The position numbers and the translations under genes are program-made. From a virus (taxonomy: Duplodnaviria; Caudoviricetes): 64,000 nt of DNA. The stretch covers positions 192,001 to 256,000 of the IMG/VR virus record IMGVR_UViG_3300021431_000075. The stretch is one strand, 5' to 3'. Shown one piece after another: positions 5,766-49,728 of the stretch; within the stretch, counting starts at the first letter, position 1, and each line of letters opens with the position of its first letter. Below the pieces are notes generated by a model, which worked only from the letters and a program-made list of their open reading frames with translations, was not told the origin of the DNA and did no database searches.

Positions 5766-5897
5766 TTTATTAACGGCTCCTATATGAAAAGAGCTGTACT
5801 CTTTTTCAGGTTACAAATATAGTTCTTTTATTCGGAACCAGCAAGAAATATAAAAATAATTTAACATTTATTTGGATTGTCTCACATCTTTCAAATT

Positions 5898-5965
5898 AAA
5901 AAACCTGCGCGCTTCACAGCGCACAGGCACAAAAATAATCTAAATCTTAAATTACCATGAAAAAC
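5898..5965 (-). ncRNA. Putative sRNA unit A1 (GUGA-loop terminator family)
   Basis: -7 TAACTTTGCA (rc 5970-5979), -33 TTGCA (rc ~5998-6002), hairpin 5904-5927 with GUGA loop followed by a U-run. Confidence 0.7.
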
Positions 5966-6022
5966 ACTTTGCAAAGTTAATAACTTTATTTCATTCATGC
6001 AAGAAAAAATCAAAAAAATAAT

Positions 6023-6093
6023 AAAAAATCCGGCGCGCTGTCACAGCGAACCGGATTCAAAAAAAAACTTTTTAATATACTTGCAAAAATTCA
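6023..6093 (-). ncRNA. Putative sRNA unit A2
   Basis: -7 TATCTTTGCA (rc 6098-6107), -33 TTGTC (rc 6126-6130), hairpin 6027-6057 with GUGAC loop plus U-run. Confidence 0.7.
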
Positions 6094-6164
6094 TCGCTGC
6101 AAAGATAGTGATTATTTTTGAACCAGACAACATAAAAACAAGTCTTTTAACTTTAATTAACGCC

Positions 6165-6249
6165 AAAAAAATCTGGCTCGCTATCACAGCGAACCAGAAA
6201 CAAAAGTACTTTTTAAATTCAAATCAACATTATTAATTAAATAATCAAA
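6165..6249 (-). ncRNA. Putative sRNA unit A3
   Basis: -7 TATATTTGCA (rc 6254-6263), -33 TTGCA (rc ~6282-6286), hairpin 6172-6198 with GUGAU loop plus U-run. Confidence 0.7.
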
Positions 6250-6310
6250 ACTTTGCAAATATAGCGATTTTGATTTTTCTGTGCAAGAAAATAATACATT
6301 TTTATGAATT

Positions 6311-6388
6311 AAAAAAACCGGCGCGCTGTCACAGCGAACCGGCTAAAAACATAAAACCTAAGAGTAATGATAGTATGTTTGCCTTTCA
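6311..6388 (-). ncRNA. Putative sRNA unit A4
   Basis: -7 TATATTTGCA (rc 6393-6402), -33 TTGTC (rc 6421-6425), hairpin 6318-6342 with GUGAC loop plus U-run. Confidence 0.7.
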
Positions 6389-6444
6389 ACTCTGCAAATA
6401 TATAGACTTTTTTCGAAACTGACAAGAAAAAACAAAAAAATTTC

Positions 6445-6538
6445 AAAAAAAAAAAATGTCCGCGCGCTGTCACAGCGAACGGACACAACCAAATATGTAT
6501 TGTAATCGTTCACATATTTAATAGAAATATCCATCAAA
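6445..6538 (-). ncRNA. Putative sRNA unit A5 (imperfect promoter, abuts the IS607 left end)
   Basis: Hairpin 6457-6485 with GUGAC loop plus a long U-run; only an imperfect -7 element (ATTATTTGCA, rc 6543-6552). Confidence 0.55.
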
Positions 6539-6614
6539 AATATGCAAATAATTTTAAACTATTGTAGTAAAAATCAGTAACATTAATGGTTAAAACTTTT
6601 TAAACATAAATGTT

Positions 6615-7205
6615 ATGGATTACTACATAAAGTTATCAGACTATGCGAAGCGTTTCGGAGTGACATACCGGACTGCATGGAACCGCTACAAGCGCGGACA
6701 GTTTCCAGATGCTATAATAGACGAGACGAATCACATTTGCATACCAATCAAGCATTTTGTAAGCGATGAAAACATCTCTGTTGCAGTGTATGCACGCGTA
6801 TCTTCGTCAGAGAATAAGAGTAATCTTGACAGCCAAGCAGAACGTCTTGTGAACTATTGCATGGCTCGCGGCTACAAGGTTTCAAAGGTCGTAAAGGAAG
6901 TCGGTTCGGGGTTGAACGACGAGCGACCGAAGCTTGACAGTTTATTGAAGGACAGAAGCATAAAAATCATAGTCGTTGAACACAAGGACCGCTTCTCAAG
7001 ATTCGGTCTCAATTACATACAGACTCTGTTGAGCATGGATGACAGGAAGATAGAGATAGTTAACGAGTCTGGCGATGACAAGGAAGACTTGATGCAGGAC
7101 TTTGTCTCTATAGTGACTTCATTTTGTGCAAGGCTCTATGGGTTGCGTAGGAATAGAAGAAGGACAGAGAAGTTGATTCAGGAACTTCAGAATGAAGATA
7201 AATAA
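6615..7205 (+). CDS. tnpA: IS607 serine-recombinase transposase TnpA
   Basis: N-terminal HTH (LSDYAKRFGVTYRTAWN), YARVSS catalytic motif, EVGSGLN, VEHKDRFSRFG, SFCARLYG. Confidence 0.95.
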   Translation: MDYYIKLSDYAKRFGVTYRTAWNRYKRGQFPDAIIDETNHICIPIKHFVSDENISVAVYARVSSSENKSNLDSQAERLVNYCMARGYKVSKVVKEVGSGLNDERPKLDSLLKDRSIKIIVVEHKDRFSRFGLNYIQTLLSMDDRKIEIVNESGDDKEDLMQDFVSIVTSFCARLYGLRRNRRRTEKLIQELQNEDK

Positions 7206-7266
7206 TAATAGAATAATATAGAAATCTTTATCGAAGATAAATAATATAGAACAATATAGAAATCTT
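7194..7266 (+). repeat. ~35-bp imperfect tandem direct repeat between tnpA and tnpB
   Basis: GAAGATAAATAATAATAGAATAATATAGAAATCTT (7194-7228) versus GAAGATAAATAATATAGAACAATATAGAAATCTT (7233-7266). Confidence 0.85.
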
Positions 7267-7279
7267 CATATAAAATATA

Positions 7280-8977
7280 GTGTCTGAACATAAGCATCAT
7301 AGAAGAAAAGTAGAAAAGAAGTCACAAAGAAAGATTTCTTCAAGTTCTTCTGTCTCTAATTCAAAGAATAAGAAGAAAAGACAGCCAAAGAAGCAGACTT
7401 TTGATGCTATGGGAATAATGCTTCGGATTTATCCGAACAGCAAGACACAGGAAGACTATATACTTCGTTCTTGTGGATGCGCTCGTCTTGTCTACAACAA
7501 GATAGTTGCGGACTATGAGTTGAAGAAAGAGCAAAGCTTAAGAGAATGGAAGAACAGTGAAACAGAGCATAAGTATCCGAAATACGGTTCGAAAGAAGGA
7601 AATGCTGTTTTGAACATGCTTAAAACCAATGAAGATTACTCGTTTCTTAAGGATGTCCATTCGAAGATGCTTCAGCAGGCAGTCTTGAATTTCTCGACCG
7701 CATTGTCAAACCATATAAGGTTCCCAGAGGATTTTGACGAGCCTGTGTTCAAGAAGAAAAGTAGACACAATGATTCGTTCCGCATTCCTATAGATGCGAT
7801 TCCCGGAAGCAATGGCAAGAAAGGAATACAATGTGTATATGGAAACAGAATATCGATTTGCTCTGAACTGACGGACGTTCTGTTTAAGTGCTCAAGACGT
7901 GACGAGAAGTATCTGAACAAGAACCAGAAGAAGATACGAAGCATAACAGTTTCTGTTGCTCCGGACGGGAAGATGTATGCTTCTGTTCTTATCGTTCCGC
8001 GCAATATAGACGTTGAAGATTGCGATATGATATGCGGTCTTGACTTGGGGCTTAAGGAGCATACGATTGAGCATCATCAGAAGATGTTCATTGATGATGA
8101 CGGCTTTGTTTCTCTTGCAGATAGTAATGTTGAGTATGTTCATATGCCGAACTTGAACAACTACAAGGATGAGAACGAAAAAGAACGAATGTTCAACAAG
8201 AACGGCGTTACAAGGCTTGAGCACTACAATAAGAAGTATATACACTGGCAGAAAGTTCTTTCAAGGACAGAGTATAATGCAAATACAAGAACTACATCAA
8301 GAAATAAAGACAACGATAAGAAACGAAACTATGACAGGGATAGTTTTCTAAACAAGAGAAGACTGAAGAATCTTGCACAATACAAGTTGAAGAGGGCAAC
8401 AACCAAGCCGTTCGGCAAGAAGCGCAAGAAGAATACATCCAAGCAAAATACAAATGTTGTATCTGAATGCAACAGACCCGTATGGCAGTACTCATCAAAC
8501 CGCCACGAGCGAATAAGGAAGCGCGCGGCGAAGTGGTCTGCGAAGATAGCGAACAAGAGAAGCGACTACAACCATAAGATTACGACAAGGCTTGTCAGAG
8601 AGAACAAGATGATAGTAACTGAGAACTTGAACGTGAGCGGTATGGTAAAGAACGGGAATCTGTCTAAAGCAATAATGAATGCTGGATGGAGCCAGTTCAC
8701 TCAGTTCTTGTCATACAAGGCTGAACGGTACGGAAGAATATACTACAAGATTGGAACATTCGCTGCATCTTCAAAGACCTGTCCGGTATGCGGGCACAAG
8801 TACAAGGAACTTACGCTTGCAGAGCGTGTGTGGACTTGCAAGAACTGCGGTGCTGTCATAAACAGGGATGAGGGTGCAAGTGACAACATAGTTTCGTTCG
8901 GAATAGAAGGATACAACGAGAAGCATCGAGCAGAACTTGACGAGCTTCGAATGAAAGACAGAGAACCAGAACTCTAA
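7280..8977 (+). CDS. tnpB: RNA-guided endonuclease TnpB (IS607), enlarged by insertions
   Basis: RIYP/GCARLVYN N-terminus, RuvC-I GLDLG, RuvC-II VTENL, Zn finger CPVC..CKNC, RuvC-III NRDEGASDNI. Confidence 0.93.
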   Translation: MSEHKHHRRKVEKKSQRKISSSSSVSNSKNKKKRQPKKQTFDAMGIMLRIYPNSKTQEDYILRSCGCARLVYNKIVADYELKKEQSLREWKNSETEHKYPKYGSKEGNAVLNMLKTNEDYSFLKDVHSKMLQQAVLNFSTALSNHIRFPEDFDEPVFKKKSRHNDSFRIPIDAIPGSNGKKGIQCVYGNRISICSELTDVLFKCSRRDEKYLNKNQKKIRSITVSVAPDGKMYASVLIVPRNIDVEDCDMICGLDLGLKEHTIEHHQKMFIDDDGFVSLADSNVEYVHMPNLNNYKDENEKERMFNKNGVTRLEHYNKKYIHWQKVLSRTEYNANTRTTSRNKDNDKKRNYDRDSFLNKRRLKNLAQYKLKRATTKPFGKKRKKNTSKQNTNVVSECNRPVWQYSSNRHERIRKRAAKWSAKIANKRSDYNHKITTRLVRENKMIVTENLNVSGMVKNGNLSKAIMNAGWSQFTQFLSYKAERYGRIYYKIGTFAASSKTCPVCGHKYKELTLAERVWTCKNCGAVINRDEGASDNIVSFGIEGYNEKHRAELDELRMKDREPEL

Positions 8978-9110
8978 AAACTGGCTGCCCTTGAGTTCAG
9001 GGAGACGGGACGTGGAGATGACCTATAGGAAAACGCATTCTTTGAATGGACATGTGAGTACCAAGTCACCGATGAATCGTCAAAAGAAAGTAAACATACG
9101 GGATTCTATG
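8978..9110 (+). ncRNA. Putative TnpB omega/reRNA scaffold
   Basis: Lies directly 3' of tnpB; CCCTTGAGTTCAGGG hairpin, then GTGGAG ... CGATGAA motifs that resemble IS607 TnpB reRNAs. Confidence 0.6.
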
Positions 9111-9297
9111 AATTTCTATGTTCTACAGAACTATAGAACACAAAAATTGAAAATTCCCAAATCAATCAATCAGTAATCTCAAGATATCTTCTCACATCAT
9201 CCTTCTTGTAATGGCTCATGATGTAGCCATCTATCTTGTCATACAACTCTGAATAAAGAGCCGAGAACTTATTGCCATTCTTGATTACAGATGACCA

Positions 9298-11883: not shown

Positions 11884-11980
11884 AAAAATCCTGAAAAACT
11901 TTCTTCAACAAGTGATTTTTAACTCTCATTAACAAACTGATGACATATATGTTGCAAAACAACAACCACAAAAAACAAAA

Positions 11981-12014
11981 CAGACCATAGAACCAAAACG
12001 GCATCTATGGTCTG
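11981..12014 (-). terminator. Intrinsic terminator
   Basis: CAGACCATAGA/TCTATGGTCTG stem with a T-rich tail on the minus strand. Confidence 0.7.
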
Positions 12015-12069
12015 AACAAAATAATAATTATTGAAACAACAGCTAAAATCTGTACATTTTAATCAAGTT

Positions 12070-12207
12070 CTAATAGAACTGCGCGACGTATTTCTTGTAA
12101 TCATCGTCTATAATCATTCTCACATATCCTTCATCCGCATTCAACATTTCCGCAATCTCTTGGACAGAGGTTCCGCAACGCCATAGCATTAAAATCTGAT
12201 CATCCAT
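12070..12207 (-). CDS. Small HTH DNA-binding protein
   Basis: MDDQILMLWRCGTSVQEIAEMLNADEGYVRMII fits an HTH pattern; start reassigned to 12207. Confidence 0.6.
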   Translation of the reverse strand: MDDQILMLWRCGTSVQEIAEMLNADEGYVRMIIDDDYKKYVAQFY

Positions 12208-12279
12208 TTGTTCTATATATTTAAGAGTTAAAAACAATACAATGTCTATATATTGTACTACTACATCACAAAATAGTTT

Positions 12280-12352
12280 AAAAAAACTGCGGATGCTATC
12301 ACAGCACCCGCAGCCCAACATACTTTTAAAATTATAATGAAAAAATCAAATG
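12280..12352 (-). ncRNA. Putative sRNA unit B1
   Basis: -7 TATCTTTGCA (rc 12357-12366), -33 TTGCA (rc ~12385-12389), hairpin 12287-12313 with GUGAU loop plus U-run. Confidence 0.7.
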
Positions 12353-12399
12353 TTGCTGCAAAGATATGAACTTTTTTTCATCCGTGCAAGAATTTATAT

Positions 12400-12484
12400 A
12401 AAAAAAAAAAGCGATCGTTATCACAACGACCGCTCACGAAAATCAAATTGCATAATCACTTAATAAATGCTACAAAAGCTTTAC
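12400..12484 (-). ncRNA. Putative sRNA unit B2
   Basis: -7 TATCTTTGCG (rc 12489-12498), -33 TTGCA (rc ~12517-12521), hairpin 12410-12434 with GUGAU loop plus U-run. Confidence 0.7.
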
Positions 12485-12553
12485 TCGCCGCAAAGATATG
12501 AACTTTTCACAAAATATGCAAGAGTTTGCTTCATTTTTTTCCAAACAATCAAC

Positions 12554-12630
12554 AAAAAAGCCGCTACTTATCACAAGCAACGACTCTCCCTTTTTTAACA
12601 ATTAACAAAATTATAACACCACGATTTATA
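12554..12630 (-). ncRNA. Putative sRNA unit B3 / terminator of the upstream MTase gene
   Basis: Hairpin 12559-12585 (AGUCGUUGCUU GUGAU AAGUAGCGGCU) with three G-U pairs on the minus strand; no clear promoter of its own. Confidence 0.55.
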
Positions 12631-12648
12631 GCAAAAAAGTTTTCATCA

Positions 12649-13401
12649 TCACAATAAAGTGTTCAACCTGTTGCTCATAATGTCGAAGAACTTCTCATCC
12701 AGTTCTATACCGATGAACTTCATTCCACAGTTAAGAGCAGCAACTCCAGTACTTCCGCTACCGGCAGTGAAGTCAAGAACGGTCCCTCCGACCGGACAAT
12801 AAGACTTACACAGGAACTCCATCAGCTCTATCGGCTTCTGTGTAGGATGCAGCTGGTCCTGTCTTCTCCACTTCTGAGGAAAGTCAAGCACGCTGTCAGG
12901 ATGCCTCGTCCCCTTGTTGTCAGTCTCAACACCTCGGATTCCGTAGTTCATATTGTTGGTCTTGTTCGGAGTGTACGCACGCTTGTAGGGTTCACCATCT
13001 CTCATCTGCGGACAATAATACGCCGCCGAGTTTCCGAACACAAGAATGTTCTCATGCTTCTTCATCGGCATGTACTTTGCCGTGAACGGGGAACCGCACT
13101 TGCTTTTCTTCCATATGAGCTCGTATCTGTACTTCTTCTCGTTGCTCAAAGCAAGTTTGTGCGTGAAAATGCCGCCGGAAAACAGGACTATGTTCCCGTT
13201 ATCGACAACAAGAGAGTCAAGACACTTCCACATGTCAGTGAAGTCTATGATGCTCTTGTCGAACTCCGAAGAAAAGATTCCATAAGGCGGATCGCATATG
13301 ACAGCATCGACCTTGACTCCCTGCTCGATAAGAATTTTCATCTCCTCGATACAGTCTCCGTTTATAATCGTATATCTCGGATCCTCTATCTTCTGTCTCA
13401 T
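12649..13401 (-). CDS. N4/N6 DNA methyltransferase (beta class), orphan
   Basis: CDPPY, HPTQKP, VLDFTAGSGSTG; ATGA overlap with the upstream gene places the start at 13401. Confidence 0.9.
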   Translation of the reverse strand: MRQKIEDPRYTIINGDCIEEMKILIEQGVKVDAVICDPPYGIFSSEFDKSIIDFTDMWKCLDSLVVDNGNIVLFSGGIFTHKLALSNEKKYRYELIWKKSKCGSPFTAKYMPMKKHENILVFGNSAAYYCPQMRDGEPYKRAYTPNKTNNMNYGIRGVETDNKGTRHPDSVLDFPQKWRRQDQLHPTQKPIELMEFLCKSYCPVGGTVLDFTAGSGSTGVAALNCGMKFIGIELDEKFFDIMSNRLNTLL

Positions 13402-14279
13402 TTGCATTTTCGATTTGTTTTTCCTTTTTTGTGCCACCGGTTCATCATCTTGCATTCCTTTGTTTCATCGCCGCTGTTTTTTTGATTCTCTTTCAAATCT
13501 TCCATATCGCTTGTCCATCTATTCTTGTCGATAGTGCTCGACAAGACACCAAGAACAAAAAGCCACATATTAATGAATTTTCTAAAACACATAATCGCGC
13601 TTATATCATTCCTGAACCACAACGGACTAATGAAAGCCTGCCCACTATAAAAGAAACCCAAATTCTGTTGCGTAATCGCGCTGACGAACACATACTGCGG
13701 ATACAAGCCGTCTGACGACTTGGTCTTATGCATGCCAAGCGACGAGCAACTCATCAGAACAACCGGACCCTTGATTATTGACAAACTCTCGACAATCAAT
13801 TCCGGACTCTTCGCAAGCATTCCTGCATACAGATACCAGTTGCGCACATCTTGAGGATTGTCTGTCACCCCCTTCTCAACCGCACGGCTATCCCATGTAT
13901 TGTTATACAAATTGCAAATCATCTCAAGTCGCGCAAAACACTTGGCTGTATATGACCGGATTCTTTCGCAGTGCAAAGCATACTCGGAAGTTCTGGTCAA
14001 CATATCGACAGAGCTATCATCCGGCGTCATGGTGTCAGAACCGAAACTCCCTTGAAATATGCTGCAAGTGCAAAACTTAACACTGAACTCAGCCAAAATT
14101 GTCGATTCCACGCATTCATAGTCCTCAGGCTTCGCACGCTTCAGTTCAGCAGAGGTATCGACATCAACCATGAATATGCCTGTAGAACCGCAGTTCCGGA
14201 AAACGAACCTGTGCTTCGACATCATGGACAAAAAGTACTCACACTGTCCTGTATTCTTAACCGATATTGCGACTCTCAT
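13398..14279 (-). CDS. Hypothetical protein
   Basis: 293-aa ORF translationally coupled to the MTase. Confidence 0.65.
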   Translation of the reverse strand: MRVAISVKNTGQCEYFLSMMSKHRFVFRNCGSTGIFMVDVDTSAELKRAKPEDYECVESTILAEFSVKFCTCSIFQGSFGSDTMTPDDSSVDMLTRTSEYALHCERIRSYTAKCFARLEMICNLYNNTWDSRAVEKGVTDNPQDVRNWYLYAGMLAKSPELIVESLSIIKGPVVLMSCSSLGMHKTKSSDGLYPQYVFVSAITQQNLGFFYSGQAFISPLWFRNDISAIMCFRKFINMWLFVLGVLSSTIDKNRWTSDMEDLKENQKNSGDETKECKMMNRWHKKGKTNRKCK

Positions 14280-49548: not shown

Positions 49549-49648
49549 AAAAAAGAAAGAATCGCTCAATGAACGACTCTCTCTAATGCGAAAACGCAAC
49601 GGTAAAATTCGTAAAGAATAAACCTTATTGCGAATCACTTGCATACAT
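49549..49648 (-). ncRNA. tracrRNA
   Basis: 5' anti-repeat AUGUAUGCAAGUGAUUCGCAAU complementary to the CRISPR repeats, then AAGG nexus, hairpins and terminator plus U6. Promoter TACCTTTGCA (rc 49651-49660) with TTTG ~20 bp upstream. Confidence 0.88.
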
Positions 49649-49728
49649 GGTGCAAAGGTAAGCATATTGTTCGGTTCATGCAAATATAATTACAAGAATA
49701 TTTCATTCATTAATAATTTTTAACAAAA

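Follow-up and report, generated by a model that had tools for sequence, protein, structure and literature searches.

Tandem arrays of predicted small-RNA genes on a FopS-like scaffold in a 673-kb megaphage of Bacteroidales

The choice of which glycan-uptake systems are translated in gut Bacteroides is made by the FopS sRNAs, a 'family of paralogous sRNAs' of the Bacteroidaceae (Rfam RF04319; PMC11697453). Bacteroides thetaiotaomicron has 14 FopS paralogues of 65-70 nt, which are transcribed from canonical sigma-ABfr promoters and consist of a single-stranded 5' seed and a Rho-independent terminator. FopS pairs at the start codon and represses susC-type mRNAs. Another sRNA, GibS (RF04182), is a trans-acting repressor at translation start regions (PMC11697453). 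FopS-type sRNAs are known from the host, and their carriage by a phage is mentioned once in the literature, in a single sentence on a FopS sequence in one Caudovirales phage (PMC11697453). Large phages of the T4 type are known to contain a different repeated element, the PeSLs, which are composite promoter-terminator motifs (PMC2839356, PMC4122927). A literature search found no paper on sRNA arrays in megaphages.

The DNA analysed here, a window of 64,000 nucleotides, comprises bases 192001-256000 of a 673,114-bp single-contig virus record. The record has direct terminal repeats, a G+C content of 40.7%, five tRNAs and no rRNA, and its genes are read normally with code 11. It is the complete genome of a 673-kb megaphage of Bacteroidales. 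Almost every gene around the two arrays described below is on the minus strand and most are ORFans, the exceptions being DNA methyltransferases and an inserted IS607-type element. The first array, at 12640-12280 on the minus strand, consists of three units in the transcription order B3, B2, B1. A sister array of five hairpin units, A5 to A1, is found on the same strand at 6500-5895, about 6 kb away (Table 1). B3, B2 and B1 are best explained as sRNA genes built on a FopS chassis and forming, together with the sister array, one battery of the phage, an explanation that is favoured with modest confidence. The megaphage would then probably make its own host-style sRNAs that re-tune gene expression.

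Table 1. Coordinates of the features discussed (positions in the window unless another contig is named) and protein identity of the related contigs.
Feature	Position	Strand	Basis or remark
N6/N4 DNA methyltransferase gene, upstream flank of B array	12649..13455	-	Pfam PF01555, 9.4e-27
B3 promoter-like site, TTG-N18-TAATTTTG	12606..12634	-	regex scan
B3 terminator hairpin and U-tract	12554..12590	-	core 12585-12559; loop GUGAU 12574-12570
B2 promoter, TTG-N20-TATCTTTG	12491..12521	-	regex scan; identical in 96% relative L285
B2 predicted transcript, ~85 nt	12400..12486	-	AU-rich body; hairpin 12435-12409, loop GUGAU 12424-12420; 11-nt U-tract
B1 promoter, TTG-N20-TATCTTTG	12359..12389	-	regex scan
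B1 predicted transcript, ~75 nt	12279..12354	-	5' part; 14-bp hairpin 12316-12284, loop GUGAU 12302-12298; U-tract
45-aa gene, downstream flank of B array	12070..12207	-	called gene, ATG at 12207
IS607-type element	6493-9140	+	abuts sister array, directly upstream of its first hairpin
TnpB-like gene (565 aa) of the element	7280-8977	+	gene annotation
Serine recombinase gene of the element	6615-7205	+	gene annotation
Units A5-A2	6016..6490	-	four hairpins with CGCU-GUGAY-AGCG cores; full promoters in A4, A3 and A2
Unit A1	5895..6002	-	promoter 6002-5972; 73-nt RNA; GUGA tetraloop terminator
Cassettes of contig L001	3300-3460 and 6280-6440	-	
Relatives L285, L286			96% protein identity
Relatives L287, L288			69% protein identity
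Relative L281			59% protein identity
Relatives L289, L290			43% protein identity

Each unit of the B array is composed of a promoter motif, an AU-rich body, a GC hairpin with a U-GUGAU-A loop and a U-tract, the hairpin being followed in every case by a T-run of 6-11. In all three units the promoter motif lies 18-55 nt upstream of its hairpin. B2 and B1 carry TATCTTTGC with a TTG 20 nt upstream. The promoter-like site of B3, which lies 15 nt past the methyltransferase stop codon, is the weakest of the three, with a spacer of 18 nt as against 20 nt in B2 and B1. The original prediction had described three minus-strand GUGAU hairpins, and these are present with exactly the arms it quoted; it had also credited two units with a full promoter, which holds for B2 and B1, and had missed the promoter-like match of B3. 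Counted from predicted start sites (for B2, about 5 nt past the -7 box), the RNAs would be about 75 (B1), 85 (B2) and 50 nt (B3) long and are predicted to fold as an open AU-rich 5' part followed by a strong terminator. The folding energy is -17.4 kcal/mol for B3 (z = -5.0) and -23.7 kcal/mol for B1 (z = -4.4), and the 5' part of B1 is U-rich, mostly unpaired and contains UUUUUUCAU. B3 alone has three G-U pairs in its stem; G-U and U-G pairs are common across the family of 27 hairpins considered below. As the G-U pairs of B3 would be A-C mismatches on the plus strand, they fix the polarity of the RNA as minus, just as originally argued. The promoter motifs predict that the B units are transcribed independently. 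A blastn search with the region against 50,697 phage records gave no match.

A genome-wide terminator scan identified 141 distinct terminator-like loci, namely the eight of the arrays and 133 others. The GUGA loop is present in all eight array terminators and in three of the 133 other loci of the 673-kb genome (Fisher P = 5e-11), two of these three being plain gene terminators. The loop is not exclusive to the arrays, yet it is strongly concentrated there; the original prediction had named an equal frequency in ordinary gene terminators as one part of what would speak against it, and this is not what the scan found. Against 39-51 (about 45) occurrences in shuffled sequences, the genome has 118 copies of the full promoter motif, three of which fall inside one 380-nt stretch in the B array. 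Promoters with a terminator no more than 130 nt downstream comprise seven in the two arrays, one at a tRNA gene and a few at unrelated sites. A covariance model (R1) built from the array hairpins scores 44-56 bits on the eight array units (B3 44.0, B2 53.5, B1 47.8), and the rest of the 673-kb genome gives nothing above 22 bits. The pattern of the B array is far beyond chance. The original prediction had called the family dispersed, which is contradicted by the eight copies found with R1, all of them in two neighbouring arrays 6 kb apart. Rfam at its own thresholds yields only one tRNA in the window; a tRNA-like nature of the units was rejected, ARAGORN reporting only that same tRNA. Elsewhere in the window, at 49554-49683 (minus strand), a full TTG-N-TAnnTTTG promoter is followed after about 68 nt by a terminator with an AUU loop. 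This short unit adjoins, just upstream, a divergently transcribed 1445-aa gene and could be an unrelated sRNA or a leader.

Four of the five sister-array units have full promoters, and the regex scan found no promoter motif for A5. The predicted A1 RNA (5895-5967) begins with 15 nt identical to the R1 seed of FopS and GibS (15/15), and this is the sole copy of the FopS seed in the megaphage genome. RF04319 is the best specific Rfam match in this array at permissive thresholds, and A1 matches it with 37.8 bits (E = 6e-4) over the whole 71-position model. The IS607-type element that adjoins the array is missing at this site in every relative fetched. A second copy of the element, of 88-90% identity, is located at 117441-120054 of the genome, and two 154-nt copies of the end of the TnpB-gene region occur near 585.8 kb and 643.6 kb. 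The one long antisense match of the A5 body (31 nt) was discarded, being the end of an IS607 copy.

Syntenic megaphage contigs were reached through a flanking 263-aa ORFan in a large protein collection. An IMG/VR search with two flanking proteins gave no relatives, and the methyltransferase was rejected as a guide to synteny because its 70%-identical homologues sit in unrelated phage contexts. Both array sites are occupied in the 96%, 69% and 59% relatives, by two to three units at the B-array site and one to seven at the sister-array site, where relatives at 96% and at 69% identity retain the FopS seed in the last unit. At the B-array site, the same three units are found in the 96% relatives, where the loop of B2, GGGAU, keeps its GNRA-like character. 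Two units occur in the 69% relatives, one with a GCGAC and the other with a GCGAU loop; each of the two units in the 59% relative has GUGAU, and the 43% relative has one gene terminator with a U-GUGAA-A loop. When 27 hairpins of four related megaphages are aligned, compensatory changes appear in 10 of the 11 stem pairs, while U-G-N-G-A-(Y)-A is fixed. The closing U-A pair and the loop G, G and A are invariant, and the second loop base is U, C or G among the relatives. In this alignment, 92% of cells are paired, as against 30-44% when the partner is slid, and the covariation score is 0.738, as against 0.21 in shuffled and 0.07-0.16 in slid alignments. The original view that selection acts on structure and loop, and that the units do not reflect recent duplication, is borne out by the covarying pairs; as to the loop it needs amending, since what is kept is a GNRA-like loop and not GUGA as such.

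The third codon positions of three flanking genes differ by 10.8-12.1% from those of L285. Against the same relative the B array has eight mismatches in 373 positions (2%; P = 7.5e-11 against the flanking third codon positions), the sister array differs at 13 of 476 aligned bases, and the B1 transcript is identical (0/75). The B array is about five-fold more conserved than the third codon positions of its flanking genes, and this low divergence indicates purifying selection, at short range, on the whole array including the bodies. At longer range, the unit bodies are replaced. None of the bodies of B1-B3 significantly resembles a body in the 69% or 59% relatives, and that of A1 is the only one that does. 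The comparison of unit numbers and bodies among related phages, which the original prediction had suggested, shows counts that vary and bodies that are kept at 96% identity, with only that of A1 kept at 69% or 59%. An orthology between B1 and unit X2 of the 69% relative, which starts with GUGUUUUUCA, is plausible by eye; it was rejected as not significant.

The change of unit number and of bodies between relatives, and the lack of body conservation at 59-69%, also fit an account in which the units are PeSL-like terminator-promoter cassettes that insulate early transcription units and/or serve as recombination sites for gene shuffling, the short RNAs being mere by-products. The same hairpin type ends ordinary genes in this genome, in the distant 43% relative and in other phages, and both arrays open with a gene-ending hairpin, that of B3 after the methyltransferase gene, whose mRNA it may also end, and that of A5, in L285, directly 3' of a 102-aa gene. 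The identical 21-nt hairpin core recurs in an unrelated phage contig of 31 kb (L001), in a terminator-promoter cassette of about 150 nt made up of the hairpin, a T-run and then a TAccTTTG promoter; two copies of this cassette stand between protein genes, each after a different one. Between the A2 hairpin and the A1 promoter, L285 has a 314-aa gene, a single case of gene gain or loss at a module between close relatives that may be PeSL-like. A repeated intergenic stem-loop, a host-type early promoter and a location in a variable region of a large phage are properties in common with PeSLs. Such cassettes are nevertheless an unlikely explanation. The body of A1 is an exact host sRNA seed that both the 96% and the 69% relatives keep, conservation against the 96% relative is as high in the bodies as in the promoters and hairpins, and the spacing of 35-55 nt and the total RNA length match FopS. 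PeSLs flank protein ORFs and are sequence-conserved recombination substrates, whereas the arrays carry non-coding bodies of 35-55 nt, and their stems covary and are not identical.

The 314-aa gene (L285:11892-12836, also present in L286) has a faint likeness to phosphoribosyltransferases, its gain or loss falls exactly on the module boundary, and the outer stem of A2 is shortened in L285 and L286. No comparable gene indel between relatives was found in the B array. In three other IMG/VR phages (L002, L006 and L029), a conserved non-coding stretch of about 100 nt past a gene comprises two small hairpins and then a terminator with a UUCGCU-GUGAU-AGCGAG core, the outer stems of which differ. It has no Rfam match at E <= 0.05 and may represent another phage sRNA family with the same terminator. 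A 15-base pattern of the hairpin core gave more than 120 matches in bacterial genomes, most of which are random by the estimated chance frequency. Only a small number belong to real terminators, such as those in a Prevotella MAG and in a Bacteroidaceae MAG. In 201 genomes from the family of the Prevotella MAG, a BLAST search with the array matched only promoter-like stretches.

In design, the units correspond to the host FopS family. The best non-generic Rfam matches in both arrays are Bacteroides sRNAs. At permissive thresholds B1 scores 24.3 bits with RF04319 (model positions 1-71) and B3 scores 20.4 bits (12551-12619), and B2 has no match. All three, and A1, are below the RF04319 gathering threshold of 56 bits. 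FopS-like RNAs from Bacteroidales genomes also fall under it, with 55.3, 52.8, 40.7 and 37.4 bits, which indicates that the threshold is tuned to B. thetaiotaomicron; over five Bacteroidales genomes, including the Prevotella MAG, these RNAs score 21-55 bits. The generic L20-leader model ('AU-rich plus terminator') gives about 30 bits on B1 and B2, so that the Rfam matches of the B array are weakly specific. The RF04182 matches in the arrays are weak, 22-23 bits against a cut-off of 115. The best Bacteroides match of B2 (12407-12482, minus strand) is rteR, the sRNA of the Bacteroides conjugative transposon CTnDOT, with 29.9 bits (32.4 in L285; cut-off 72). The R1/R1' seed GUGUUUUUCAUGGUAUUAGAU at the 5' end is absent from B2 and B3, and B1 keeps only GAUUUUUUCAUUAUAAU of it after an extension of about 7 nt. 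B1-B3 would be seed-diverged sRNAs on the FopS scaffold that lie outside the formal sequence definition of the family.

The loops of the FopS-like RNAs from the five Bacteroidales genomes are GUGA, GCGA, GAGA, GUGAU or GUGAC, and the consensus terminator loop of RF04319 is GuGaa. The shared loop is, on this comparison, a hallmark of the host FopS scaffold, and the notion that it is special to the phage does not survive, as it is also found on ordinary gene terminators. At least 114 IMG/VR contigs contain the FopS seed, suggesting that phages commonly carry it. Viral contigs offer 18 clear terminators behind the seed: the loop as folded is GNRA(N) in 13 and reads GUGAY or GCGAY with a wobble closing pair in three more. 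At 145 other viral loci with the FopS seed, no adjoining tandem arrays were found within the flanks examined. In a Bacteroidaceae MAG (L152, L157 and L162), FopS-like genes begin a few bases past the 3' ends of tRNA genes. tRNA genes are common attachment sites of prophages, and such an arrangement may explain part of the seed matches in viral contigs.

The position of the B array between two genes admits a cis-acting role, with B1 as the attenuator leader of the 45-aa gene and B3 as the 3' UTR or terminator of the methyltransferase gene. The 45-aa gene, which is also called in the 96% relatives L285 and L286, resembles sigma-70 region 4 and further HTH domains below threshold (E = 0.006-0.04), and no TAnnTTTG box is present between the B1 terminator and its ATG at 12207, which leaves it without a promoter box of its own downstream of that terminator. 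B3 sits 60 nt past the methyltransferase stop codon, and FopS-14 of the host is itself derived from a 3' UTR (PMC11697453). The terminator of B1 is, however, very strong (14 bp and U7), no alternative anti-terminator fold was seen for B1, and the design recurs eight times, including at A1, where the next gene has its own promoter, all of which makes a cis-acting role improbable. The terminator 3' of the 45-aa gene (11975-12020, minus strand) is a long hairpin with an ordinary non-GNRA loop, which means that not all neighbouring genes use a GUGA-type loop.

GNRA tetraloops and pentaloops of GNRA-like form lend stability to hairpins and can act as handles for proteins. The loop of the arrays, G-N-G/A-A plus one additional base and a closing U-A pair, is compatible with a GNRA fold from which one base is extruded. 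Being GNRA-like with a free second base, it most simply serves hairpin stability and termination, and a function as a protein handle is possible. The boxB hairpin of lambda, to which the N protein binds, does not act as a terminator. An antitermination site of the boxB type was dropped by reasoning, as the hairpins here are themselves terminators. CRISPR-repeat mimics were likewise dropped, there being no repeat-like unit and every unit ending in a terminator, and so was an anticodon-loop mimic, position 33 not being U.

It is also conceivable that the RNAs are not guides and act as decoys that soak up RbpB or another loop-recognising host factor. RbpB binds the 5' part of FopS and counteracts FopS (PMC11697453), no RRM (RbpB-like) protein is encoded by the phage, and many tandem strong promoters together with an invariant closing pair and loop would suit such a role. 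Against this, the RbpB footprint lies in the 5' sequence of FopS, which is not common to B1-B3, and the loop is present on ordinary terminators too, so that decoys appear quite improbable. That the units encode micro-peptides is most improbable of all. A 10-codon ATG frame in B2 ends at a UGA inside the loop, and two sister-array units have short frames that end at the same loop UGA. These frames of 7-17 codons are missing from several units and are not conserved, and in L285, where the loop UGA has become GGA, the B2 frame ends differently. Short ORFs in the host family were excluded by the authors who described FopS (PMC11697453).

On the favoured explanation, that of sRNA genes on a FopS chassis, each unit would combine a sigma-ABfr promoter with an RNA of 50-85 nt that has an AU-rich, unpaired 5' region and ends in a Rho-independent terminator whose pentaloop is GNRA-like. 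The units would be transcribed by the host RNA polymerase, and the strong hairpin and the U-tract would end and stabilise each RNA. The unique 5' body would serve as the seed and pair with mRNAs in the way that FopS pairs at the start regions of susC. In B1, UUUUUUCAU is antisense to AUG followed by A-rich codons, the type of site used by FopS. Both arrays together would form a battery of host-style sRNAs with diversified seeds, one of which is an exact host FopS seed. A search for antisense targets of B1-B3 in the phage genome gave nothing beyond chance and no extended site. In 151 genomes of the family of the Prevotella MAG, the anti-B1 17-mer has 24 matches, about the same as its reversed control, in a test of low power because this family may not be that of the phage host. 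More tentatively, the clade may keep the arrays as a fast-evolving, re-programmable battery for the translational silencing of host mRNAs such as those of SusC-type outer-membrane transporters, with the loop as the handle of a factor. The FopS-type promoter and the GNRA-loop terminator would be fixed parts, one exact FopS seed would be retained and the other seeds would be swappable, and the invariant U-GNGA(Y)-A loop would be the handle for a dedicated stability or partner factor.

What appears to be new is the presence, in a clade of megaphages, of conserved, tandem and seed-diversified predicted sRNA genes on a FopS scaffold. A complete 673-kb phage and its relatives carry two conserved arrays, in this phage with one host seed and seven bodies of its own. 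If the arrays are expressed, large phages of the gut and rumen would rewire the post-transcriptional control of their hosts with host-style RNAs, which would bear on nutrient use, on surface proteins and possibly on phage receptors. The arrays, in which a single scaffold is combined with many seeds, also offer natural material for the study of sRNA function in a phylum without Hfq.

Of the known systems, lambda boxB differs from the array hairpins in having a partner protein, none being known or predicted for the array loop. GibS of B. thetaiotaomicron shares the R1 seed with FopS and A1, and is unlike the array units in its length of 142 nt, its second seed, its non-canonical promoter and its other terminator loop. 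With FopS there are several points in common. All three B units match the motif of its TTG ... TAnnTTTG sigma-ABfr promoter, their predicted length of about 50-85 nt is comparable with its 65-70 nt, with the same order of an open 5' stretch and a Rho-independent terminator, and their GUGAU pentaloop corresponds to its GuGaa consensus. B1 still has the UUUUUCAU core, a sequence antisense to an AUG-AAAAA start region, and the genes are multicopy like those of FopS, sister unit A1 having the identical 15-nt R1 seed. FopS genes, however, are scattered in the chromosome, whereas the phage genes stand in tight tandem arrays, and their seeds vary among the units and show turnover among related phages.
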